DNA of 30,145 bases from Candidatus Hermodarchaeota archaeon (GCA_016839365.1 JAEOUH010000066.1:1-30145), one strand, 5' to 3'; shown: positions 1,904 through 10,452, counted from the stretch's first letter. Notes: generated by a model from the sequence alone, not told the origin. A program made the numbers and translations.

Positions 1904-1912
1904 CGGTGTACA
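1904..1912 (-). promoter_or_regulatory. Putative operator TGTACACCG (reverse orientation)
   Basis: CGGTGTACA is the reverse complement of the 9-mer at 3607 and 5576; intergenic. Confidence 0.5.
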
Positions 1913-1950
1913 GAATTTTTTGTGAAATTAAGATATTTTAAAATGAAATA

Positions 1951-2787
1951 TCAATGGTGACCACACTTGTGTGTATACGTCTCTCGAGCACGGGCTTCTT
2001 GGTCCTTGTAGGTATCTAGTCGAGTAATCAGCAAATCGAAATTAACTTCGTGACCATTGAACTCTGGACCATCTACACAAGCAAATTTCATCTCTCCACC
2101 GACATCCACTCGGCAAGCGCCACACATACCTGTCCCGTCAACCATAATTGGATTGAGGCTGCATTCGGTTTTGATTCCAAAAGGCTTAGTTGTTTCAGCA
2201 ACGAATTTCATCATGATTGGCGGTCCGACGGTAAAGACATAATTGATTTTTCGATTAGATTCAAGCAATTCCTTAAGCTTCGTGGTTACAAATCCTTTCG
2301 AACCTTTAGACCCATCATCAGTGGTTATATACAATTCATCACTGATTTGATTGAGTTCGAGTTCACAAACTAATAGATCATCCTGTCGGGCACCAAGAAT
2401 AGTGATAAGGTAATTTCCCGCATCTTTGATTTGGCGAGCCCGTGGAAGGGCAGGTGCTGCCCCACAGCCACCAGCTACCACCACGGCAGTTCCATACTGT
2501 TCTACAGTGGGAGCATGACCCAAAGGACCAAGAATATCTTTGATAACGTCACCTGGCTTCAGTTTGGCTAACTCCATTGTGGATTTGCCGAGAACTTGGA
2601 AGACAATGGTTACCGATCCTTTTTCGCTATCCCAATCTTTGAAGGTAAGGGGGATACGTTCACCCTGATCATGTAATCGCAGAATTAAGAACTGCCCTGG
2701 TTGGGCTTTAGCCGCGATATCCGATGCTTCTATATCAAATTCGAAGATATCAGAGGCGATTTTACGAGTCGATAACACCTTGAACAT
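1951..2787 (-). CDS. NfnA/SudB-type FAD/NAD-binding [2Fe-2S] oxidoreductase small subunit
   Basis: PGQF...GERIPLT, GPLG, GGCG, TDDGS, GPPIMMK and MVDGTGMCGACRV...FACVDGPEF (Asp plus three Cys cluster ligands). Confidence 0.92.
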   Translation of the reverse strand: MFKVLSTRKIASDIFEFDIEASDIAAKAQPGQFLILRLHDQGERIPLTFKDWDSEKGSVTIVFQVLGKSTMELAKLKPGDVIKDILGPLGHAPTVEQYGTAVVVAGGCGAAPALPRARQIKDAGNYLITILGARQDDLLVCELELNQISDELYITTDDGSKGSKGFVTTKLKELLESNRKINYVFTVGPPIMMKFVAETTKPFGIKTECSLNPIMVDGTGMCGACRVDVGGEMKFACVDGPEFNGHEVNFDLLITRLDTYKDQEARARETYTHKCGHH

Positions 2788-2854
2788 GTATACAACCCCT
2801 TAACTTGGAACAGAGTACAAAGTGGCGGAATACTAGAAACGGTATAAAGATTCC

Positions 2855-3583
2855 TCACACATCAATAGAGATTTTCAGACCATCAACGGTGTAAGGGTAC
2901 GATTCATATGTTTTGGGATTGTATCGACCACCCGCTTTTTTAACGCGTATCAGCCGTTGATTATTTTCTCGATTCAGTTCGACGACAACCTGGGTGGTGT
3001 GTTCAATTGCTGCAAGGAACTCTTTATTATGAGCATGTCTGTTGATCGTCCAATAGGCTAATGTCTTATATGCGTACAGGGCGGGGCAGATATGTCCAAA
3101 AAGGCTCCGGGCACTCTCCTCTCCCCACAGGATTTCCATCGCTGTGAGACTATTTATCACAAGGCGGGTTCCATCACCGATAAACTCCCTCTCGATACGT
3201 CCAAAAAAGTGGTGAAACCTTTCAACTTCTCGTGACATAGGGACTTTGCGAATCCAAGATGGAGATTTATCGTAAAAATCAGTAAAAACTAGTTCCCCGC
3301 GACCTCCTGATTCTGAAAAGCAATCTAACACTAAGAGATGGTTCTCCCAACCGGAAGAGAGAGAACTAATCAAAGGCTTTAGAAAAAGTAACAAAGCTTG
3401 TGGCGGATATATGAAGTCCAGATAAATTACTTGCTTCTTTTCTTCAATTCCTTGTCGTAAGAAGTTTTGTAGAAATTCGTTGACGAAGGTTCCAGTTTCA
3501 TATTCCAAAACAACGTTTTCTCCAAGGATAAGTCCTTCACCAAGAATTTCATCAAATTTTGGAATGCCTGTTGAACTGCGCAT
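2855..3583 (-). CDS. Single-domain KaiC/RAD55-like protein with degenerate Walker A and B
   Basis: N-terminal STGIPKFDEILGEG and C-terminal RLIRVKK are KaiC-like. The P-loop position reads EYETGTFVNE (no GKT/S) and the Walker B position reads LVINSL. Confidence 0.8.
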   Translation of the reverse strand: MRSSTGIPKFDEILGEGLILGENVVLEYETGTFVNEFLQNFLRQGIEEKKQVIYLDFIYPPQALLLFLKPLISSLSSGWENHLLVLDCFSESGGRGELVFTDFYDKSPSWIRKVPMSREVERFHHFFGRIEREFIGDGTRLVINSLTAMEILWGEESARSLFGHICPALYAYKTLAYWTINRHAHNKEFLAAIEHTTQVVVELNRENNQRLIRVKKAGGRYNPKTYESYPYTVDGLKISIDV

Positions 3584-3603
3584 GAATACTCAACACTTCC
3601 AAT

Positions 3604-3688
3604 GATTGTACACCGCGAATTAAATGTTTGATTGTTGTTTGATGTACATTCATGTACAAAATGAACATAAGCTTTGAATAGTTGAACA
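3604..3688. promoter_or_regulatory. Divergent promoter region with an array of TGTACA/TGAACA boxes
   Basis: TGTACA at 3607, 3643 and 3653; TGAACA at 3662 and 3683. GATTGTACACCG (3604-3615) is identical to 5573-5584. Confidence 0.7.
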
Positions 3689-3700
3689 CTATACTCTATC

Positions 3701-3735
3701 TTAACCAGGTGAAGTCACATGCTTAACCTGGTTGA
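3701..3735 (+). promoter_or_regulatory. Inverted repeat covering the gdh RBS and start codon
   Basis: TTAACCAGGTGAAGT-CACAT-GCTTAACCTGGTTGA forms a 15-position stem with one mismatch and two G-U pairs. The SD AGGTGA (3707-3712) lies in the stem. Confidence 0.5.
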
Positions 3736-5497
3736 ATTAACACCAATTGAATTGGGCTTGCAGAAGTTAATGGTCGACTTCTTCGCTGATAAGCCTGAGT
3801 ATACAGCCGGACTGGATCAGTTCACATCCGTTCATTATGCCTTAATGACGGCATTATCTGAAAATTATAAGGTTCCCTTTGCGACAACATCAACGATTTT
3901 CGAACAACTTGCCGTGAAGATTCATCGGGCTGAATATGTAAATGTCGAATGTCCTGATGAGCCATTAGGAAATGATTGCCTTACCCGTCAAGAACTTCAA
4001 ATTCTGGGTGCCATGTTTGATTACTTCGCTGAACAACCTTCACATGTTGAGGCCAGCCTTCTCGCAAATCGTCGTGAAGCCTTTATAGATTATTTCAAAT
4101 GGATTCACGGTGGTGATATTGAAGAAATCTCATCCTCCTGTGGCAATGTGATTGATCGATTACAGAAGGCAGTTTCTGCTACAATCCAAACTCTTGATTC
4201 AGTTACGCCCACTCCGAATCCATATGAAGCGGCTCTTGAACAACTGGATCTCGCTGCCGAAAAGTTGGGATTAGACCCAGCCATTCATGAGGTGTTGCGT
4301 CATCCACAGAGAATTCTCATCGTAAATATCCCAGTTCGCATGGACGATGGAAACGTTCGTGTTTTCACTGGATATCGTTCCCAGTACAATGATGCACTGG
4401 GACCTACGAAAGGGGGGATTCGATATCATCCTGATACAACACTCGATGAAGTAATTGCCTTATCGGCATGGATGACCTTCAAAACTGCTGTCGTGGGCTT
4501 ACCTTTGGGTGGCGGTAAAGGCGGGATACGGTGTAACCCCAAAGAAATGTCATTGAGCGAGCTTGAACGTTTAACCCGTGGATATACTAGAGAAATGGTT
4601 CGATTTATTGGTCCTCAGACAGATGTCCCTGCGCCTGACGTGTATACAGATGCACAAACGATGGCGTGGATAATGGACGAATATGCCGAATGCACTGGTC
4701 TTTATTGTCCGGGTGTGGTTACAGGAAAACCGGTGGGGATTGGCGGCTCGAAAGGTCGAGAGGAAGCAACCTCACTGGGATTAGTCTTCACTGTTATTGA
4801 AGCAGTACAGGAACTCGGAATTCCCCTTAACGAAACCCGAGTAGTTGTTCAAGGTTTTGGAAATGTTGGCTTTAACGCCGCACAAATTCTATATGAGCGG
4901 GGCTGTAAAATCATCGCTGTTTCTGATTCCCAGGGAGGTATATTCAACCCCGACGGGCTAGATCCTGAGCAGGTAAAAGAACACAAGAAACAGTCCGGTT
5001 CAGTGATTGGCTACAAGGACTCTATTCAAATCAGTAATCATGATATTTTGGAACTTGATTGTGATATCCTGATTCCAGCTGCTTTGGAAAATGTCATTAC
5101 TGCTGAAAACGCCCCTAGAATCAAAGCGAAGATTATTGCTGAGGGAGCAAATGGCCCCACAACACCTGAAGCTGATGTAATCATCCACCAACAGAAAATC
5201 TTCCTTATCCCCGATATTCTCGCAAATGCTGGAGGTGTTACGGTCAGCTACTTCGAAATGGTTCAGAATCAAATCAATTACTTTTGGACTATAGAAGAAG
5301 TTCATAGCAAGCTCAAACAGATCATGCAAACTGCATTTCACGATGTGCTGGTGCTTTCAAAAGAACATGATGTTCCAATGCGTATTGCGGCCTATATGCT
5401 TGCCTTGAGCCGTATCAGCTATGCAATGCAGATGAGAAGACGTTCATCTACTAAAGAACGCGCTAAACCCCCTAAACAAAGAATCTTGAAAACCTAA
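3719..5497 (+). CDS. gdhA: Glutamate dehydrogenase (Glu/Leu/Phe/Val family) with an N-terminal extension of about 165 aa
   Basis: GPTKGGIRYHP, MTFK..LPLGGGKGG, DVPAPD, VTGKP, QGFGNVG, EGANGP and NAGGVTVSYFE are all intact. SD AGGTGA precedes ATG 3719. Confidence 0.95.
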   Translation: MLNLVELTPIELGLQKLMVDFFADKPEYTAGLDQFTSVHYALMTALSENYKVPFATTSTIFEQLAVKIHRAEYVNVECPDEPLGNDCLTRQELQILGAMFDYFAEQPSHVEASLLANRREAFIDYFKWIHGGDIEEISSSCGNVIDRLQKAVSATIQTLDSVTPTPNPYEAALEQLDLAAEKLGLDPAIHEVLRHPQRILIVNIPVRMDDGNVRVFTGYRSQYNDALGPTKGGIRYHPDTTLDEVIALSAWMTFKTAVVGLPLGGGKGGIRCNPKEMSLSELERLTRGYTREMVRFIGPQTDVPAPDVYTDAQTMAWIMDEYAECTGLYCPGVVTGKPVGIGGSKGREEATSLGLVFTVIEAVQELGIPLNETRVVVQGFGNVGFNAAQILYERGCKIIAVSDSQGGIFNPDGLDPEQVKEHKKQSGSVIGYKDSIQISNHDILELDCDILIPAALENVITAENAPRIKAKIIAEGANGPTTPEADVIIHQQKIFLIPDILANAGGVTVSYFEMVQNQINYFWTIEEVHSKLKQIMQTAFHDVLVLSKEHDVPMRIAAYMLALSRISYAMQMRRRSSTKERAKPPKQRILKT

Positions 5498-5533
5498 AAG
5501 GCAGTCAATCACTGCCTTTCCCTTTCTTATTTT
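5497..5533 (+). terminator. Hairpin plus pyrimidine tract after gdh
   Basis: AAAGGCAGT-CAATC-ACTGCCTTT (perfect 9-bp stem, 5497-5519) followed by CCCTTTCTTATTTT. Confidence 0.6.
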
Positions 5534-5545
5534 CTGGTTCCCTAG

Positions 5546-5584
5546 CGTACATAATGTACAAGATTAATAAACGATTGTACACCG
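5546..5584 (+). promoter_or_regulatory. Promoter of the RHH regulator, with GTACA boxes flanking a TATA-like element
   Basis: CGTACA at 5546, TGTACA at 5555, ATTAATAA at 5563-5570, GATTGTACACCG at 5573-5584. Confidence 0.7.
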
Positions 5585-5605
5585 ATTGAAATTTAGGGAA
5601 CATCA

Positions 5606-7537
5606 ATGTCGGTGCATATTCACACAACCATCCCCAAAAAAACTGGAGCAATTTTAGATGAATTGGCGGGAACCTACGGAACCAAAAGTCGTGTTATTGA
5701 AACGGCTTTAGAGACGTTACTTCGTGTTGATAAGGTGGGGTCTTGCGATGATTGCCAATTAAAGGCTCAAATCGAAGAAGAAATCAAACTCCGAGAATCC
5801 CTAGAGCTAGCCTCAATTCGTCGAGACTTGCTGGATGAGCTTCTAAAAATTGCGTTAGCAGATAAAACATTTGAAGAATTCATTCAATGGCAGCAAAATG
5901 AGGTTCAGAATACGATAGAACTAATTCAGAGTACCATCCATTGGAAATCCCCCACCCAATTTCGTGAATTTCTTGCGGTGATTGACCAAATCAGTAAGAC
6001 AACGAGGGCGTTTGAAATTGCTTCTCACCGAGAAACGGATAACATGGTTGTGTTACGGCCCTTGGTTTTTGTTAGCTTACCCGAATTGGTTGCTTTACAA
6101 CTCACGATTGTACTTGAAGGGATTGGCTGTCATTTTGATCTTCGATTTATGCGTAAAGAAATCATTATCAAAATGCTTAGAAGAGATTTATCAACTATCC
6201 GACGCACTGACCCCATGCAACTCGTTCTTCAAAGCCTGCAGGAGAAGTTAAGCAGCCTTCGACCGGCACTCTTTAAGGACCAACTTGCTTTGGTTGGACC
6301 AGCATTCTTGAAATGGGCGACGAAGAACCTTGAAGGCTCGGTTACGGACTTAGGGACTGCTATAGAAGATATCCAGTTATTTCTGAAACCCAAAGAACTA
6401 TCTGATGTACCCCAAGAATTCATGCGAGGATTACTCGAAGCTGTTCGAGGAATGAATTGGATTTCACAATTTAAAATTAAAATCGAGTCCAACAACCAAT
6501 GCCATATCACCTTTCAAGCAACCTCTCCACCTATCGCAAATATCACAACAGTATACCTTGCCATTATTTTGGCGACGCGTGGATGGAAACTCATCCGACA
6601 CTCAACTGAATACAATAATGGCTCCCTAATCGTGGAATTAGCAGGAGAAGGGGCTCAAAATATTTTAGACCAGCTGAGTGATTTGAATCTTTATGGCGTG
6701 GTAAATGAGCAGTTCCTTGATTCCATTCCAGTCCCCCGAGAATTATACGAAACTTTCGCTATCAAAATATATGATAGTGATCGGCGACGATTTGAAGAAA
6801 TCTATAGAAACATGGGCTTTCGAGTCGCAAATGCAATTCGTATGCTAGGTAACAATGATGATTCGCGCATACTGCAACTCATTCAAATGTTTATCGAAAA
6901 GAATGTTCACCAATCTCAACCCAATGCTGACGTTCGCTTTGTCGATGATGAAAATTTCTCGATAGTCTTCAAGAAAATGAATGTAGTGATATTAGCTAGC
7001 CAACGATTAATCATTGGGGCGATGCTTGAAGCATTGGGGTATCAGGTCTCATTTACAGAATTTCAAAACCTACTGAATGTTGTGATGAAGAAAATTGACA
7101 AACCCTTTCTGAGCCCACTTCATCGAAGAGAAGTCGTCCAGATGGTGAGTGACGCTATTGCAGCGGATTCAGCGAAGAGCGCCCTTAACCAGGTGAAACC
7201 AACCTTAGATGATCTATTCCCTCTGGAATATCCTTGGACGATTCATGAAATTGGAGACCGGCTCTTAGAAATGTATCGTGAGTTGGGAATACAGGTAGAA
7301 GTCGAGTACTTCGAAGGTGGATTTACGCTCAAATACCGCACTTGCCCCTATTACAAGCTAGTGAAAAATGATCAAAAGACCTGGCTCTGTACCTTCCGTA
7401 AAAAAGCCATCGAGTACATTCTTTCACGCGTTACAAAGACCGGAAAAGGACGGATTAGGGTGATTAAATCGCTTGTTCAAGATGGTACACATCCCTGCGA
7501 ATATGCAGTTTTCTTAGAAGAATTTCTAGCAACCTAG
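5606..7537 (+). CDS. Putative transcription regulator: N-terminal ribbon-helix-helix, CxxC, then repeated V4R-like alpha/beta domains
   Basis: VHIHTTIP..TGAILDELA...TKSRVIETALE fits the RHH strand-helix-helix pattern. SCDDC follows. The C-terminal TCPY...WLC...HPCEY is a V4R-type three-Cys arrangement. Confidence 0.7.
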   Translation: MSVHIHTTIPKKTGAILDELAGTYGTKSRVIETALETLLRVDKVGSCDDCQLKAQIEEEIKLRESLELASIRRDLLDELLKIALADKTFEEFIQWQQNEVQNTIELIQSTIHWKSPTQFREFLAVIDQISKTTRAFEIASHRETDNMVVLRPLVFVSLPELVALQLTIVLEGIGCHFDLRFMRKEIIIKMLRRDLSTIRRTDPMQLVLQSLQEKLSSLRPALFKDQLALVGPAFLKWATKNLEGSVTDLGTAIEDIQLFLKPKELSDVPQEFMRGLLEAVRGMNWISQFKIKIESNNQCHITFQATSPPIANITTVYLAIILATRGWKLIRHSTEYNNGSLIVELAGEGAQNILDQLSDLNLYGVVNEQFLDSIPVPRELYETFAIKIYDSDRRRFEEIYRNMGFRVANAIRMLGNNDDSRILQLIQMFIEKNVHQSQPNADVRFVDDENFSIVFKKMNVVILASQRLIIGAMLEALGYQVSFTEFQNLLNVVMKKIDKPFLSPLHRREVVQMVSDAIAADSAKSALNQVKPTLDDLFPLEYPWTIHEIGDRLLEMYRELGIQVEVEYFEGGFTLKYRTCPYYKLVKNDQKTWLCTFRKKAIEYILSRVTKTGKGRIRVIKSLVQDGTHPCEYAVFLEEFLAT

Positions 7538-7638
7538 TTGGAGAAAGGGAAATCTTGTGTTCCGAATTCAATTGTATAAACAAAGCGTGTTCAATGTGGG
7601 AAATTTCATAGATTAAGGGAATTAAGGAGGATTCGCTG

Positions 7639-10452
7639 TTGGTAACTACCAATTTAGACCGCATTTTTAATCCTAAGAACATTGTCGTTATTGGTGCTAG
7701 CGAAGAGGAGGGATCAGTGGGACAAATTCTGATGCGTAATTTGGTAATGAATGGATTTGGTGAAAAAGTCTTTCCTGTGAATATTCGTCGCCAAGAAGTA
7801 ATGGGCATTAAGGCTTATCCGACAGTAAGTGAAATCCCCCAGTCTATTGATTTGGCAATCATAGCAACTCCGGCAAAAACTGTGCCTGACATTGTTGAAG
7901 AATGTGGAAAAAAAGGAATTAAGGGAATAATAATCATTTCGGCTGGGTTCAAGGAAATCGGCTCTGAGGGTCTTGCGCTCGAGAAGGAATTAATTGAATT
8001 AAAAAGGAAGTACAATCTTCGAATAATCGGACCCAACTGCTTTGGCATCATTCGTCCGAGTATCCAATTAAATGCAACCTTTGCAGAAGCGATGCCAAAG
8101 ACTGGGAATATTGCATTCATCTCTCAGAGTGGAGCCTTAGGTTCGGCCATAATCGATTGGGCGCTTGGCCAAAATCTGGGATTCAGTAACTTTGTTTCGG
8201 TTGGTTCGATGATTGATGTGGATTTTGGGGATTTAATCGACTATTTTGGAACCGATCCCCAAACACGAAGCATAATCCTGTACATTGAGGGCATATCCGA
8301 TGCACGGAAGTTTATGAGCGCGGCCCGTCACTTTGCGAAAACTAAACCCATTATTGTGGTAAAAGCAGGTAAGTTTAGCGAAAGTGCCCAGGCAGCTGCC
8401 TCACACACCGGCTCATTGACAGGGTCAGATCTGGTTTACGATGCAGCTTTCAAACGGGCAGGCATTGTACGTATCGAAGAAATTTCGGATTTATTTAATG
8501 CATCAGAAACACTGGGAATGCAACCGTTACCAGAAGGCCCGCGCTTAGCAATCATCACAAATGCGGGGGGCCCAGGCGTGATGGCAGCAGATGCATTACT
8601 CCAAAAAGGAGGAAAACTTGCCCATCTATCAGAAACCACAATGAAAGAATTGGACAAGATTCTCCCGCCATTTTGGAGCCAAGGAAATCCTATCGATATT
8701 TTAGGTGACGCCGATGCCCAACGCTACCGCGAAGCGATGAGTATATGTCTGGCTGATAAAAACGTTGATGGCATCCTGCTTATTTACACTCCACAAGCGA
8801 TTGCCGCCGCAGAAACTATTGCACAGAATATCGTTTCAGCTTGTGATGCCCGCGGAGGATGTGAAAAAACCATATTGACATCATTTATGGGCGGAAATAA
8901 AGTTGAAAAAGCTAACCAAATTTTCACAGAAAACGGATATCCTACATATTGGACTCCTGAACACGCTGTTAAAACTTATTTGTACATGTACCAATACAAA
9001 CGAAATCTTGAGTTATTATATGAAACCCCTGAAGAACTACCCATCGAGAGTGCACCTCCAAAACGTCCCGTTTTGATAATTTTACGAAATGCGGCCAAGC
9101 AGAAGCGTGAGATCCTTACTGAAGTAGAAGCCAAACAGCTTTTAGAATTTTATAATATCCCTGTGGTAAAAACCCGAATCGCTAAATCTGTGGATGAAGC
9201 CGCTGCAGCCGCAGCCACAATAGGGTATCCAGTCGTCCTGAAAATTTACTCACCGGATATCACACACAAATCTGATGCCGGTGGAGTAAAACTCAACCTA
9301 AATGACGATAACGAAGTCCGCAATGCTTACAATCTCATCATCGAAGCAGCTAAAGCTTACAAGCCAACGGCAAAAATTCAAGGCGTGACGGTCCAGGAAA
9401 TGATTGAACCCCCAGGAACAGAAGTGATTCTAGGTGCAAAACGCGATCCTCTCTTTGGACCCGTCATACTATTTGGAATGGGAGGCGTAGGTGTAGAATT
9501 CTTCCAGGATGTATCACTCGGTTTTCCTCCTCTCAATCAAACTCTTGCAAGACGCATCATGGAGGACACCCGAGTGTATGAGGTTCTCGTCAAAGGACAC
9601 CGACGAACACCCCCAGCCAATCTTAAATTATTGGAAGAACTCATAGTCCGTTTCTCACAAATGATTGTCGATTTTCCCGAAATCAAAGAGATGGACATCA
9701 ATCCACTTCTTGTCGATGACAAACAAGCCATTGCACTAGACGCCCGAATAGTAATCGATTTATCACGGATAGAGAAAAAAGGAGATACCCCACAAGAACT
9801 CGTGATAAGTCCTTATCCAAAACGGTATGAACAGATTTGGCGCATACGAGATGGACGTATGGTCTTATTCCGTCCAATCAAACCTGAGGATGAACCACTT
9901 TGGTTAGAAATGTTTCAAAACTTTTCTGAAGAATCGATTCGCTACCGGTTTTTTGAAATCATCAAAGATACCCCCCACGAAGTTAGGATACGGTACACAA
10001 ATATTGATTATGACCGGGAAATCGCCATCGTCCCTATATTACACGAAAAAGGTAAAGATAGAATCTTGGGTGTGGTGCGATTAATTGAAGAACCAGATGG
10101 AAAACGGGGAGAAATCGCCTTTATCATCGCTGATCCATGGCAAGGTCTTGGACTCGGTTCCAAATTACTTGACTATATGGTTGAAATAGCAATTGACAGA
10201 GGATTGGAAGAAATCTATGGAGTGATGCTCCCCGATAATTATCGAGCGCATAAACTAATGGAAAAAATGGGATTTACGCTCGAACGGACGAGGGATGGGC
10301 TGGTTAAAGCTACACTCGATTTAAAGGAAGAAAAACACTGGCGAGCTCCACGAGAATTTCGAACTATTCATGAACCTGCAATAGAAGCAGAAGAACTGAA
10401 GAAGCATGTTCAACCAATAAAGAAACGAAAGAAAAAAGCCAAAAAGTCCTGA
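7639..10452 (+). CDS. Bifunctional ADP-forming acetate--CoA ligase family / GNAT acetyltransferase (Pat-like)
   Basis: VIGAS, GPNC.G, SQSGA, ASHTG, TNAGGPG, NPIDILG, ATP-grasp HKSDAGGV and DINP, and a C-terminal GNAT with WQGLGLG. TTG start behind AAGGAGG. Confidence 0.93.
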   Translation: MVTTNLDRIFNPKNIVVIGASEEEGSVGQILMRNLVMNGFGEKVFPVNIRRQEVMGIKAYPTVSEIPQSIDLAIIATPAKTVPDIVEECGKKGIKGIIIISAGFKEIGSEGLALEKELIELKRKYNLRIIGPNCFGIIRPSIQLNATFAEAMPKTGNIAFISQSGALGSAIIDWALGQNLGFSNFVSVGSMIDVDFGDLIDYFGTDPQTRSIILYIEGISDARKFMSAARHFAKTKPIIVVKAGKFSESAQAAASHTGSLTGSDLVYDAAFKRAGIVRIEEISDLFNASETLGMQPLPEGPRLAIITNAGGPGVMAADALLQKGGKLAHLSETTMKELDKILPPFWSQGNPIDILGDADAQRYREAMSICLADKNVDGILLIYTPQAIAAAETIAQNIVSACDARGGCEKTILTSFMGGNKVEKANQIFTENGYPTYWTPEHAVKTYLYMYQYKRNLELLYETPEELPIESAPPKRPVLIILRNAAKQKREILTEVEAKQLLEFYNIPVVKTRIAKSVDEAAAAAATIGYPVVLKIYSPDITHKSDAGGVKLNLNDDNEVRNAYNLIIEAAKAYKPTAKIQGVTVQEMIEPPGTEVILGAKRDPLFGPVILFGMGGVGVEFFQDVSLGFPPLNQTLARRIMEDTRVYEVLVKGHRRTPPANLKLLEELIVRFSQMIVDFPEIKEMDINPLLVDDKQAIALDARIVIDLSRIEKKGDTPQELVISPYPKRYEQIWRIRDGRMVLFRPIKPEDEPLWLEMFQNFSEESIRYRFFEIIKDTPHEVRIRYTNIDYDREIAIVPILHEKGKDRILGVVRLIEEPDGKRGEIAFIIADPWQGLGLGSKLLDYMVEIAIDRGLEEIYGVMLPDNYRAHKLMEKMGFTLERTRDGLVKATLDLKEEKHWRAPREFRTIHEPAIEAEELKKHVQPIKKRKKKAKKS

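Follow-up and report, generated by a model that had tools for sequence, protein, structure and literature searches.

Glutamate dehydrogenase (GDH) connects carbon with nitrogen metabolism and holds a central place in the amino-acid fermentation that has been proposed for Asgard archaea and Bathyarchaeia. To our knowledge, neither group has a genetic system, and we know of almost nothing on the regulation of their GDHs. In Bacillus, RocG and GudB act on GltC as trigger enzymes, and the GDH of Thermus is hetero-oligomeric with regulatory subunits. Among the ribbon-helix-helix (RHH) repressors, NikR has a fused sensor domain, and CopG, Arc, and MetJ are plain repressors; proteins of this type are 45-140 amino acids (aa) long and have at most one sensor domain. 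MsvR is a methanogen-specific V4R-domain regulator: it acts as a repressor and binds repeated boxes in the promoter of its own gene, and cysteine residues of the protein modulate this binding (PMC3729527). Three conserved cysteines have been described for the MetOD1 and V4R domains, and MetOD1 is related to V4R and H-NOX (PMC5847659). Here, we describe a locus in a 30,145-nt stretch of DNA from Candidatus Hermodarchaeota archaeon (GCA_016839365.1 JAEOUH010000066.1:1-30145), hereafter the window, to the whole of which all counts and coordinates refer. The genome to which it belongs (own genome, G000) is an Asgard metagenome-assembled genome of 2.2 Mb, 84% complete. The locus is probably a three-gene cassette with its own operator, controlling a specialised second GDH.

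The initial annotation of this DNA had proposed that five adjacent genes with non-standard features, together with a TGTACA(CCG) motif, form an undescribed regulatory system. All five genes and the TGTACA motif were found where it had placed them. Three of the genes make up the cassette:

2855-3583, minus strand: P-loop-less KaiC-like protein (pseudo-KaiC), 242 aa; PF06745 at 31.1 bits (cut-off 26.6)
3719-5497, plus strand: extended GDH, 592 aa; ELFV_dehydrog_N and ELFV_dehydrog domains
5606-7537, plus strand: RHH-like/V4R-like regulator, 643 aa; no Pfam or NCBIfam match above threshold

The pseudo-KaiC and extended gdh genes are divergent, and the regulator gene lies downstream of gdh on the same strand.

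When compared with MsvR, the regulator of the window is likewise a putative archaeal one-component protein with a Cys-bearing, V4R-like candidate sensor and with repeated boxes ahead of its own gene. However, MsvR is a small protein with a helix-turn-helix head and one V4R domain, restricted to methanogens and directed to oxidative-stress targets, whereas the regulator described here has an RHH-like head, a CxxC motif, as many as four modules in about 600 residues, a putative GDH target, and two partner genes. MsvR is thus the nearest studied archaeal regulator in kind, but the 643-aa protein is not a member of its family. With NikR, CopG, Arc, and MetJ, the regulator shares the polar-alternating strand, helix, G-x-S/T turn, and helix, the autoregulation (predicted here), and short tandem or inverted boxes about one helical turn apart over the core promoter; it differs in its length of 643 aa and in an RHH_3 match that stays below threshold. 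The MetOD1/V4R/H-NOX group, which includes the phenol sensors PoxR, MopR, and DmpR (PDB 5fru, 6iy8), is resembled in the three conserved cysteines of the C-terminal module, which is about 130 residues long, and in the alignment of residues 375-500 at Z of 6.8-7.8. However, the regulator scores under the family cut-offs, and the described MetOD1 domains of methanogens follow REC domains and not an RHH head (PMC5847659). In the RocG/GudB-GltC and Thermus systems, too, GDH is tied to dedicated regulators and to transcription of glutamate genes; those systems differ in having non-homologous partners, no extra domain on GDH, and no pseudo-KaiC, and for the present cassette contacts of GDH with its partners are predicted.

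Within the genus of this archaeon (the Hermod genus), the whole 15 kb is collinear, including unrelated genes for pyrophosphatase, PEMT, and 2-hydroxyacid dehydrogenase. Synteny there therefore says little on function, and it was rejected as evidence. For this reason a wider search was run with the 643-aa regulator as the query, and 80 metagenome loci were fetched via alignment of the regulator homologues; the denominators below are loci with enough flank. The extended GDH gene was directly upstream of the regulator gene in 62 of 63 loci, and the divergent pseudo-KaiC gene was present in 55 of 56. Gene order, orientation, and operator are retained at 47-50% protein identity across two archaeal phyla, whereas the flanks differ entirely: MCM/GINS/RFC in Bathyarchaeia and SCP2/pyrophosphatase in Hermod. 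The mean column identity of all three proteins is 72-76%, with about 50-65% between the phyla. In 400 Asgard genomes from 85 genera, the phylogenetic check suggested by the initial annotation placed the orthologues of the regulator, the GDH N-domain, and pseudo-KaiC in a single family (f1) and in the same genomes. Six or seven members of this family are without all three genes, and the sole gaps in co-occurrence within its genomes are contig ends. From the observed gene content, synteny, and co-occurrence, the three genes are one inherited, all-or-none unit of Hermod-type Asgard archaea and Bathyarchaeia. No account of such a cassette came up in the literature on V4R with GDH, RHH with V4R, MetOD1, or KaiC with GDH. 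The cassette is apparently undescribed, and the idea of a new conserved regulatory unit centred on a special GDH was borne out to this extent.

In Bathyarchaeia, pseudo-KaiC is usually followed by a GltB-like FMN/Fe-S protein (33/45) and a canonical 416-aa GDH (36/45). The own genome has the counterpart of this pair on another contig (G000:C46:36257-40028), where the canonical GDH and GltB-like genes are convergent with a Cys-rich open reading frame (ORF) between them; in Bathyarchaeia it stands directly behind pseudo-KaiC.

The window contains 12 copies of TGTACA where 4.5 would be expected, and 12 copies were reached in 1 of 100 shuffles. Six of the 12 copies sit in three intergenic spacers, in agreement with the motif first noted. 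The candidate operators and a hairpin between gdh and the regulator gene are as follows:

3643-3688, no strand: operator of the divergent pseudo-KaiC/gdh promoter region, four boxes and a TATA-like element: TGTACA (3643-3648), TGTACA (3653-3658), TGAACA (3662-3667), TATA-like TTTGAATA (3673-3680), TGAACA (3683-3688)
5500-5516, plus strand: hairpin GGCAGT-CAATC-ACTGCC followed by a T-rich run, immediately 3' of the gdh stop
5546-5584, no strand: operator of the regulator gene itself, with boxes on both sides of a TATA-like element: CGTACA (5546-5551), TGTACA (5555-5560), TATA-like TTAATAAA (5564-5571), TGTACA(CCG) (5576-5584)

The consensus of the pseudo-KaiC/gdh spacer in 61 non-redundant loci, with regulator identity down to 47%, is TGTaCA-N4-TGTACA-N3-TG.ACATAA-N2-TTTctATA-N2-TGAACAT. 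Three boxes about 10 bp apart are followed by the TATA-like element and a fourth box, 30-50 bp ahead of the gdh start. The TGTACA-N3/4-TGTACA pair is present in 48 of these 61 spacers and has its single occurrence in the own 2.2-Mb genome at this very place. When the genome was scanned for stretches of 50-60 bp with three or more TGTACA/TGAACA boxes, of which two or more had to be TGTACA, the only such cluster was that at 3607-3667 (0-1 in shuffles); with no second cluster in the own genome, no wider regulon was found there. Ahead of the canonical GDH and GltB-like genes on contig C46 of the same genome there are no boxes.

Of 65 non-redundant spacers ahead of the regulator gene, 61 contain TGTACA, again with regulator identity down to 47%. 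The spacer of the window reads CGTACA-N3-TGTACA-N3-TTAATAAA-N4-TGTACA at 5546-5581, a layout common to all loci of the Hermod genus, and in Bathyarchaeia it reads ATGTACAT-N13-TGAACAT-N2-TTTAAAAG. Both the conservation of the operator and its uniqueness in the genome were observed directly, and the retained pattern of bases indicates that the promoter boxes are under selection. The stem GGCAG/CTGCC of the hairpin is retained with varying loops in relatives of the Hermod genus and is absent from Bathyarchaeia; judged from its sequence, the hairpin is probably a terminator between gdh and the regulator gene.

The longer word TGTACACCG, which the initial annotation had taken as the shared motif, was rejected as an operator word. 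It has three copies in the window, all intergenic, and 12 across the 2.2-Mb genome; seven of the nine copies outside the window lie inside an ORF of at least 100 aa. The CCG tail is gone already in a 94%-identical relative, and two of the copies are not conserved:

3607-3615, plus strand: TGTACACCG copy close to where pseudo-KaiC begins; replaced by TATAAACCG in L025, a relative with 94% identity, and by TATACACCG in L039
1904-1912, minus strand: third TGTACACCG copy, in the spacer that separates the NfnA-like gene from the gene of a small membrane protein; retained only in the 98%-identical contig L039, CGGTGCACT at 94% identity, absent in other members of the genus; probably chance

The conserved element is TGTACA/TGAACA.

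The regulator has more than 333 full-length homologues, all unnamed, and is about 50% identical in Bathyarchaeia; some homologues carry the JGI names CopG or RelB-type antitoxin. It is laid out as an RHH-like head (residues 1-40), a CxxC motif (47-50), three alpha/beta modules, and a C-terminal MetOD1/V4R-like module. The N-terminus is the most invariant part of the protein. Residues 3-40 have the alternating polar strand, helix, G-x-S/T/N turn, and helix of the RHH pattern: VHIHTTI at 3-9, helices at 11-24 and 27-40, and the turn G25-T-K-S28. His4, His6, Thr7, Thr8, and Gly25 are invariant in 24 homologues, and the G-T-K-S turn is invariant or nearly so. The strand was not modelled in the predicted structure, as expected for a monomer. 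In the C-terminal module, Cys580, Cys595, His629, and Cys631 are invariant in the same 24 homologues, which gives the three-Cys cluster. Matches to MetOD1 at E of 5 or less were seen in 18 of the 24 members. The body is predicted to consist of four helix-hairpin-helix-hairpin modules (mean predicted local distance difference test score, pLDDT, of 67.5), and residues 375-500 align with Bet3 (Z of 7.8), DmpR (7.2), PoxR (7.1), and H-NOX (6.8). Foldseek matched the regulator to TRAPP and H-NOX chains at E of 1e-2 or weaker, and against the PDB it found nothing at E of 0.001 or below. The putative RHH and V4R labels thus rest on sub-threshold profile matches, the sequence pattern, and the predicted fold.

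A 25%-identical paralogue of 515 aa, with the RHH pattern and CxxC, is found in another Asgard family (L120:4064-5611; L119:6790-8349). It adjoins radical-SAM and flavin amine-oxidase genes and has no GDH nearby. At its own promoter (L120:3975-4030), three TTGAACA boxes, 21-23 bp apart, are arranged around TATA-like runs, and this locus has nine copies of TTGAACA against 3.3 expected (0 of 200 shuffles); the other paralogue locus (L119) is not clearly enriched. Since such boxes occur at a paralogue promoter away from GDH, the boxes follow the regulator and not GDH. No other observation argues as strongly for the regulator as the reader of the boxes.

The KaiC-family fold (PF06745) covers residues 4-235 of pseudo-KaiC. 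In 22 of 22 homologues, the Walker A site (EYETGTF in the window; E-x-E-S/T-G-T-F) has no lysine and the Walker B site (LVINS; hhhhN-S-L) has Asn in place of Asp. Many His, Cys, and aromatic residues are invariant among the homologues. Because the Walker A and B motifs are lost, pseudo-KaiC is a pseudo-ATPase and not a working KaiC, as had been proposed from the outset. A profile search of 1.84 billion representatives gave 522 relatives. In the nearest ones outside the cassette, the P-loop-less domain is N-terminal in proteins with HTH_3 and Cupin_2 (about 430 aa), with GAF, Sigma54_activat, and HTH_8 (about 774 aa), or with PPDK_N (870 aa). The metagenome proteins P0164, P0165, P0168, P0179, and P0192 carry an HTH_3-Cupin_2 or GAF-Sigma54_activat-HTH_8 fusion, and one GAF-Sigma54-HTH_8 relative is named Nif-specific regulatory protein.

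The N-domain of the dikinase-like PPDK_N fusion matched pseudo-KaiC in hhalign at 99.3% (E of 1e-20). In 11 of 17 sampled loci, from other Asgard families, this fusion adjoins a bacterial-type NADP-GDH of another subfamily. Thus, like pseudo-KaiC, it has an N-domain without the P-loop lysine and a GDH neighbour; it differs in its length of 870 aa, its ATP-grasp domain, the retained Walker-B-like Asp, and a partner GDH without N-extension, whereas the pseudo-KaiC of the window is a stand-alone protein of 242 aa with a 55-residue insert. The P-loop-less KaiC-like domain is therefore linked to GDH in two independent arrangements. No paper was found describing the dikinase-like PPDK_N family beside GDH. 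The fusion loci (L121:3397-6021 and L122-L139) are annotated as PEP synthase; the fusion gene is often divergent from the NADP-GDH gene and in several loci stands beside a ThiF-family gene. The N-terminal place of the P-loop-less domain on regulators and on GDH-linked PPDK_N proteins suggests that it behaves as an input or docking domain. Pseudo-KaiC is probably a stand-alone sensor or adaptor domain of this kind. It should be mentioned that the own genome has a second P-loop-less KaiC-like protein (G000:C5:11368-12480, minus strand), a 371-residue open frame with a Glu/Pro-rich acidic tail of about 130 residues ending in DTFFF.

The catalytic core of the extended GDH covers residues 167-573 and is followed by a short basic tail; PF02812 (195 bits) and PF00208 (277 bits) match this protein. 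GGGKGG with the catalytic Lys, the dinucleotide-binding motif GxGNVG, and the other invariant columns of GDH are retained, as in the canonical paralogues. The core model aligned with the Thermus and Pyrobaculum GDHs at Z of 49-50; with Thermus GDH (3aoe_E), Z was 50.1 and the root mean square deviation 2.4 over 410 residues. Judged by these residues, the core is intact in its catalytic equipment. The protein scored 562 bits against the NCBIfam equivalog GdhA_Arch, short of the cut-off of 750. In the GDH tree, the canonical GDHs of both phyla form one clade with the extended forms outside; the tree does not settle the monophyly of the latter.

The first 165 residues (3719-4213) form the extra N-terminal tandem domain, in line with the domain extension noted initially. 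This N-domain opens with MLxLVEL, conserved in both phyla. Its two halves of 80 aa each are homologous (hhalign 98.2%, E of 5.6e-14), which indicates a tandem duplication, and a beta-3alpha-beta arrangement is predicted twice, with block-mean pLDDT mostly 65-92 and loops below 50. The N-domain gave no usable Pfam match, no PDB sequence match, and no Atlas match. With queries from the N-domain of the window, homologues were found only on GDHs. A stand-alone N-domain family was considered and rejected, the short homologues appearing to be contig-end fragments.

From these features, the following mechanism is proposed. The 643-aa protein would be an autoregulated one-component transcription factor, the RHH head of which would read the TGTACA/TGAACA boxes, which stand in tandem at intervals of about one helical turn. 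The boxes bracket the TATA elements of the gdh and regulator genes; those of gdh are in the spacer that separates its promoter from the divergent one of pseudo-KaiC. Binding of the regulator would most likely block the access of TBP/TFB, and as a result transcription would be repressed. A signal to the V4R/MetOD1-like modules, which might be a small ligand, a metal, or redox state sensed via the Cys/His cluster and CxxC, would relieve the repression. Pseudo-KaiC, as a sensor or adaptor domain dead in nucleotide hydrolysis, would probably relay nitrogen or glutamate status to the regulator, to GDH, or to both, and the duplicated N-domain of GDH would be a likely docking surface. A further step seems possible to us but on balance doubtful: that the GDH N-domain and pseudo-KaiC gate DNA binding by the regulator in a trigger-enzyme circuit, in which GDH flux or substrate state sets transcription, and, jointly with this, that the P-loop-less domain is a widespread GDH/nitrogen sensor, common to the cassette, to NifA-like and XRE-cupin regulators, and to the GDH-linked dikinase-like family.

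Several points weigh against a regulator-operator cassette of this kind. We infer which protein binds the boxes, in which direction it regulates, what signal it receives, and every protein-protein contact. The metagenome loci were fetched via the regulator, so outside Asgard archaea GDH or pseudo-KaiC orthologues without the regulator would escape. At one locus (L072:132-5145) the regulator stands behind a canonical-length GDH with no pseudo-KaiC. As to the regulator itself, RHH_3 is sub-threshold (E of 0.046-0.11; residues 6-40) and appears in 4 of 24 members, and a profile of the first 60 residues searched against the PDB matched only helix-hairpin-helix segments of DNA ligase (E of 4e-4). 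The best MetOD1 match (P0054, C-terminus) is 21.0 bits, short of the Pfam cut-off of 23.8; the regulator of the window has no MetOD1 match, and PF02830 (V4R) was never listed. The four body modules have no mutual sequence similarity (hhalign below 3%), and the fold matches of the model are middling, at Z of 7-8. Finally, the regulator is about 50% identical between phyla along its 640 residues, which is far above what is usual for a plain regulator and could point to a structural role in a complex. Apart from this, the genes at L072 are, in order, a GltB-like gene, the canonical-length GDH without N-extension, and the regulator, all on one strand.

If such a structural role were the main one, the regulator and pseudo-KaiC would mainly be non-catalytic, allosteric subunits of a large GDH complex, and the boxes would be read by another factor, or DNA binding would be secondary. 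The very strong conservation of the three proteins fits this picture, and so do the dedicated extra domain confined to the extended GDH, the link between a pseudo-KaiC domain and another subfamily of GDH in other Asgard lineages, and the fact that the core finds its best structural counterpart in the hetero-hexameric GDH of Thermus. However, the most invariant part of the regulator is the N-terminus with the RHH pattern, boxes are found both at the regulator's own promoter and at that of its distant paralogue, and the paralogue family has other neighbours, with no GDH among them. We therefore regard the complex as an unlikely account of the locus. The clustering might also be a by-product of one horizontally transferred block, with no functional tie beyond common descent. 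The distribution is indeed patchy, as one of about 33 sampled Asgard families has the unit against many Bathyarchaeia, but order, orientation, and operator are kept at 47-50% identity between entirely different flanks, the pattern within the family is all-or-none, and the promoter boxes appear to be under selection; such an origin of the clustering is scarcely credible.

The remaining alternative is the five-gene system as first annotated, in which the two outer genes would be working parts and would add redox balance and lysine acetylation of GDH:

1951-2787, minus strand: FAD/NAD/2Fe-2S protein of the NfnA/SudB/PyrK type (NfnA-like), 278 aa; NF004862 at 394 bits (cut-off 220)
7639-10452, plus strand: ACD-GNAT protein of Pat-type architecture (Pat-like), 937 aa; ADP-forming acyl-CoA synthetase (ACD) domains and GNAT

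The five genes are adjacent and collinear in nine relatives of the genus, the Pat-like gene also follows the regulator gene in L046 and, 1.8 kb away, in a second genus, and the glutamate-synthase-type flavin/Fe-S protein and canonical GDH behind pseudo-KaiC in Bathyarchaeia make a redox partner at this place a recurring theme. Against this, the collinearity in the genus extends over the unrelated genes of the 15 kb as well. In the metagenome loci, the NfnA-like gene is next after pseudo-KaiC in 3 of 45 with at least 6 kb of flank, and in 2 of 69 the ACD-GNAT gene comes immediately after the regulator gene. Conserved boxes are lacking upstream of both genes, and a conserved TATA-like element of its own precedes the NfnA-like gene. 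In one relative (G005) a 2-kb insertion separates pseudo-KaiC from the NfnA-like gene, and in another (G009) the Pat-like gene is missing from the locus. The two genes are local neighbours within the Hermod lineage only, outside the conserved unit, and a five-gene system is quite improbable. Of the system first proposed, the three-gene unit, the putative RHH-type regulator, and the operator shared across two phyla stand, and the neighbourhood comparison links the three core genes across phyla; the membership of the NfnA-like and Pat-like genes finds no support.

The NfnA-like gene stands between those of pseudo-KaiC and of a membrane protein of 120 aa. Beside it there is no GltD-like gene of the kind that NfnAB pairing would require; the rest of the genome was not searched for NfnB. 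The 937-aa protein consists of CoA_binding_2, Succ_CoA_lig, Ligase_CoA_2, ATP-grasp_5, and Acetyltransf_1 (788-879) domains, so an ACD-like N-terminal region is combined with a C-terminal GNAT domain as in the Pat type. It reached 67 bits against the ActPatMycb56 equivalog, short of the cut-off of 460. The ACD His motif SHTGSLTGS is retained; therefore, on the evidence of this motif, the protein may combine a working ADP-forming acyl-CoA synthetase with an acetyltransferase and thus not be a Pat whose N-domain is dead. The other flanking genes of the five-gene stretch are ordinary (2-hydroxyacid dehydrogenase, SCP2, pyrophosphatase, PEMT, GatD, GatE).

The three-gene cassette with its own operator is thus our preferred reading of the locus. 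It offers a compact case: the operator is defined, candidates for the regulator and for the sensor domain are at hand, and the enzyme carries a new domain. It may serve as a candidate switch on glutamate metabolism that is testable with purified proteins and DNA. Furthermore, the stand-alone pseudo-KaiC is joined to a large unstudied domain family that occurs on transcription factors and on GDH-linked ATP-grasp proteins, and this link could open a general question of nitrogen sensing.

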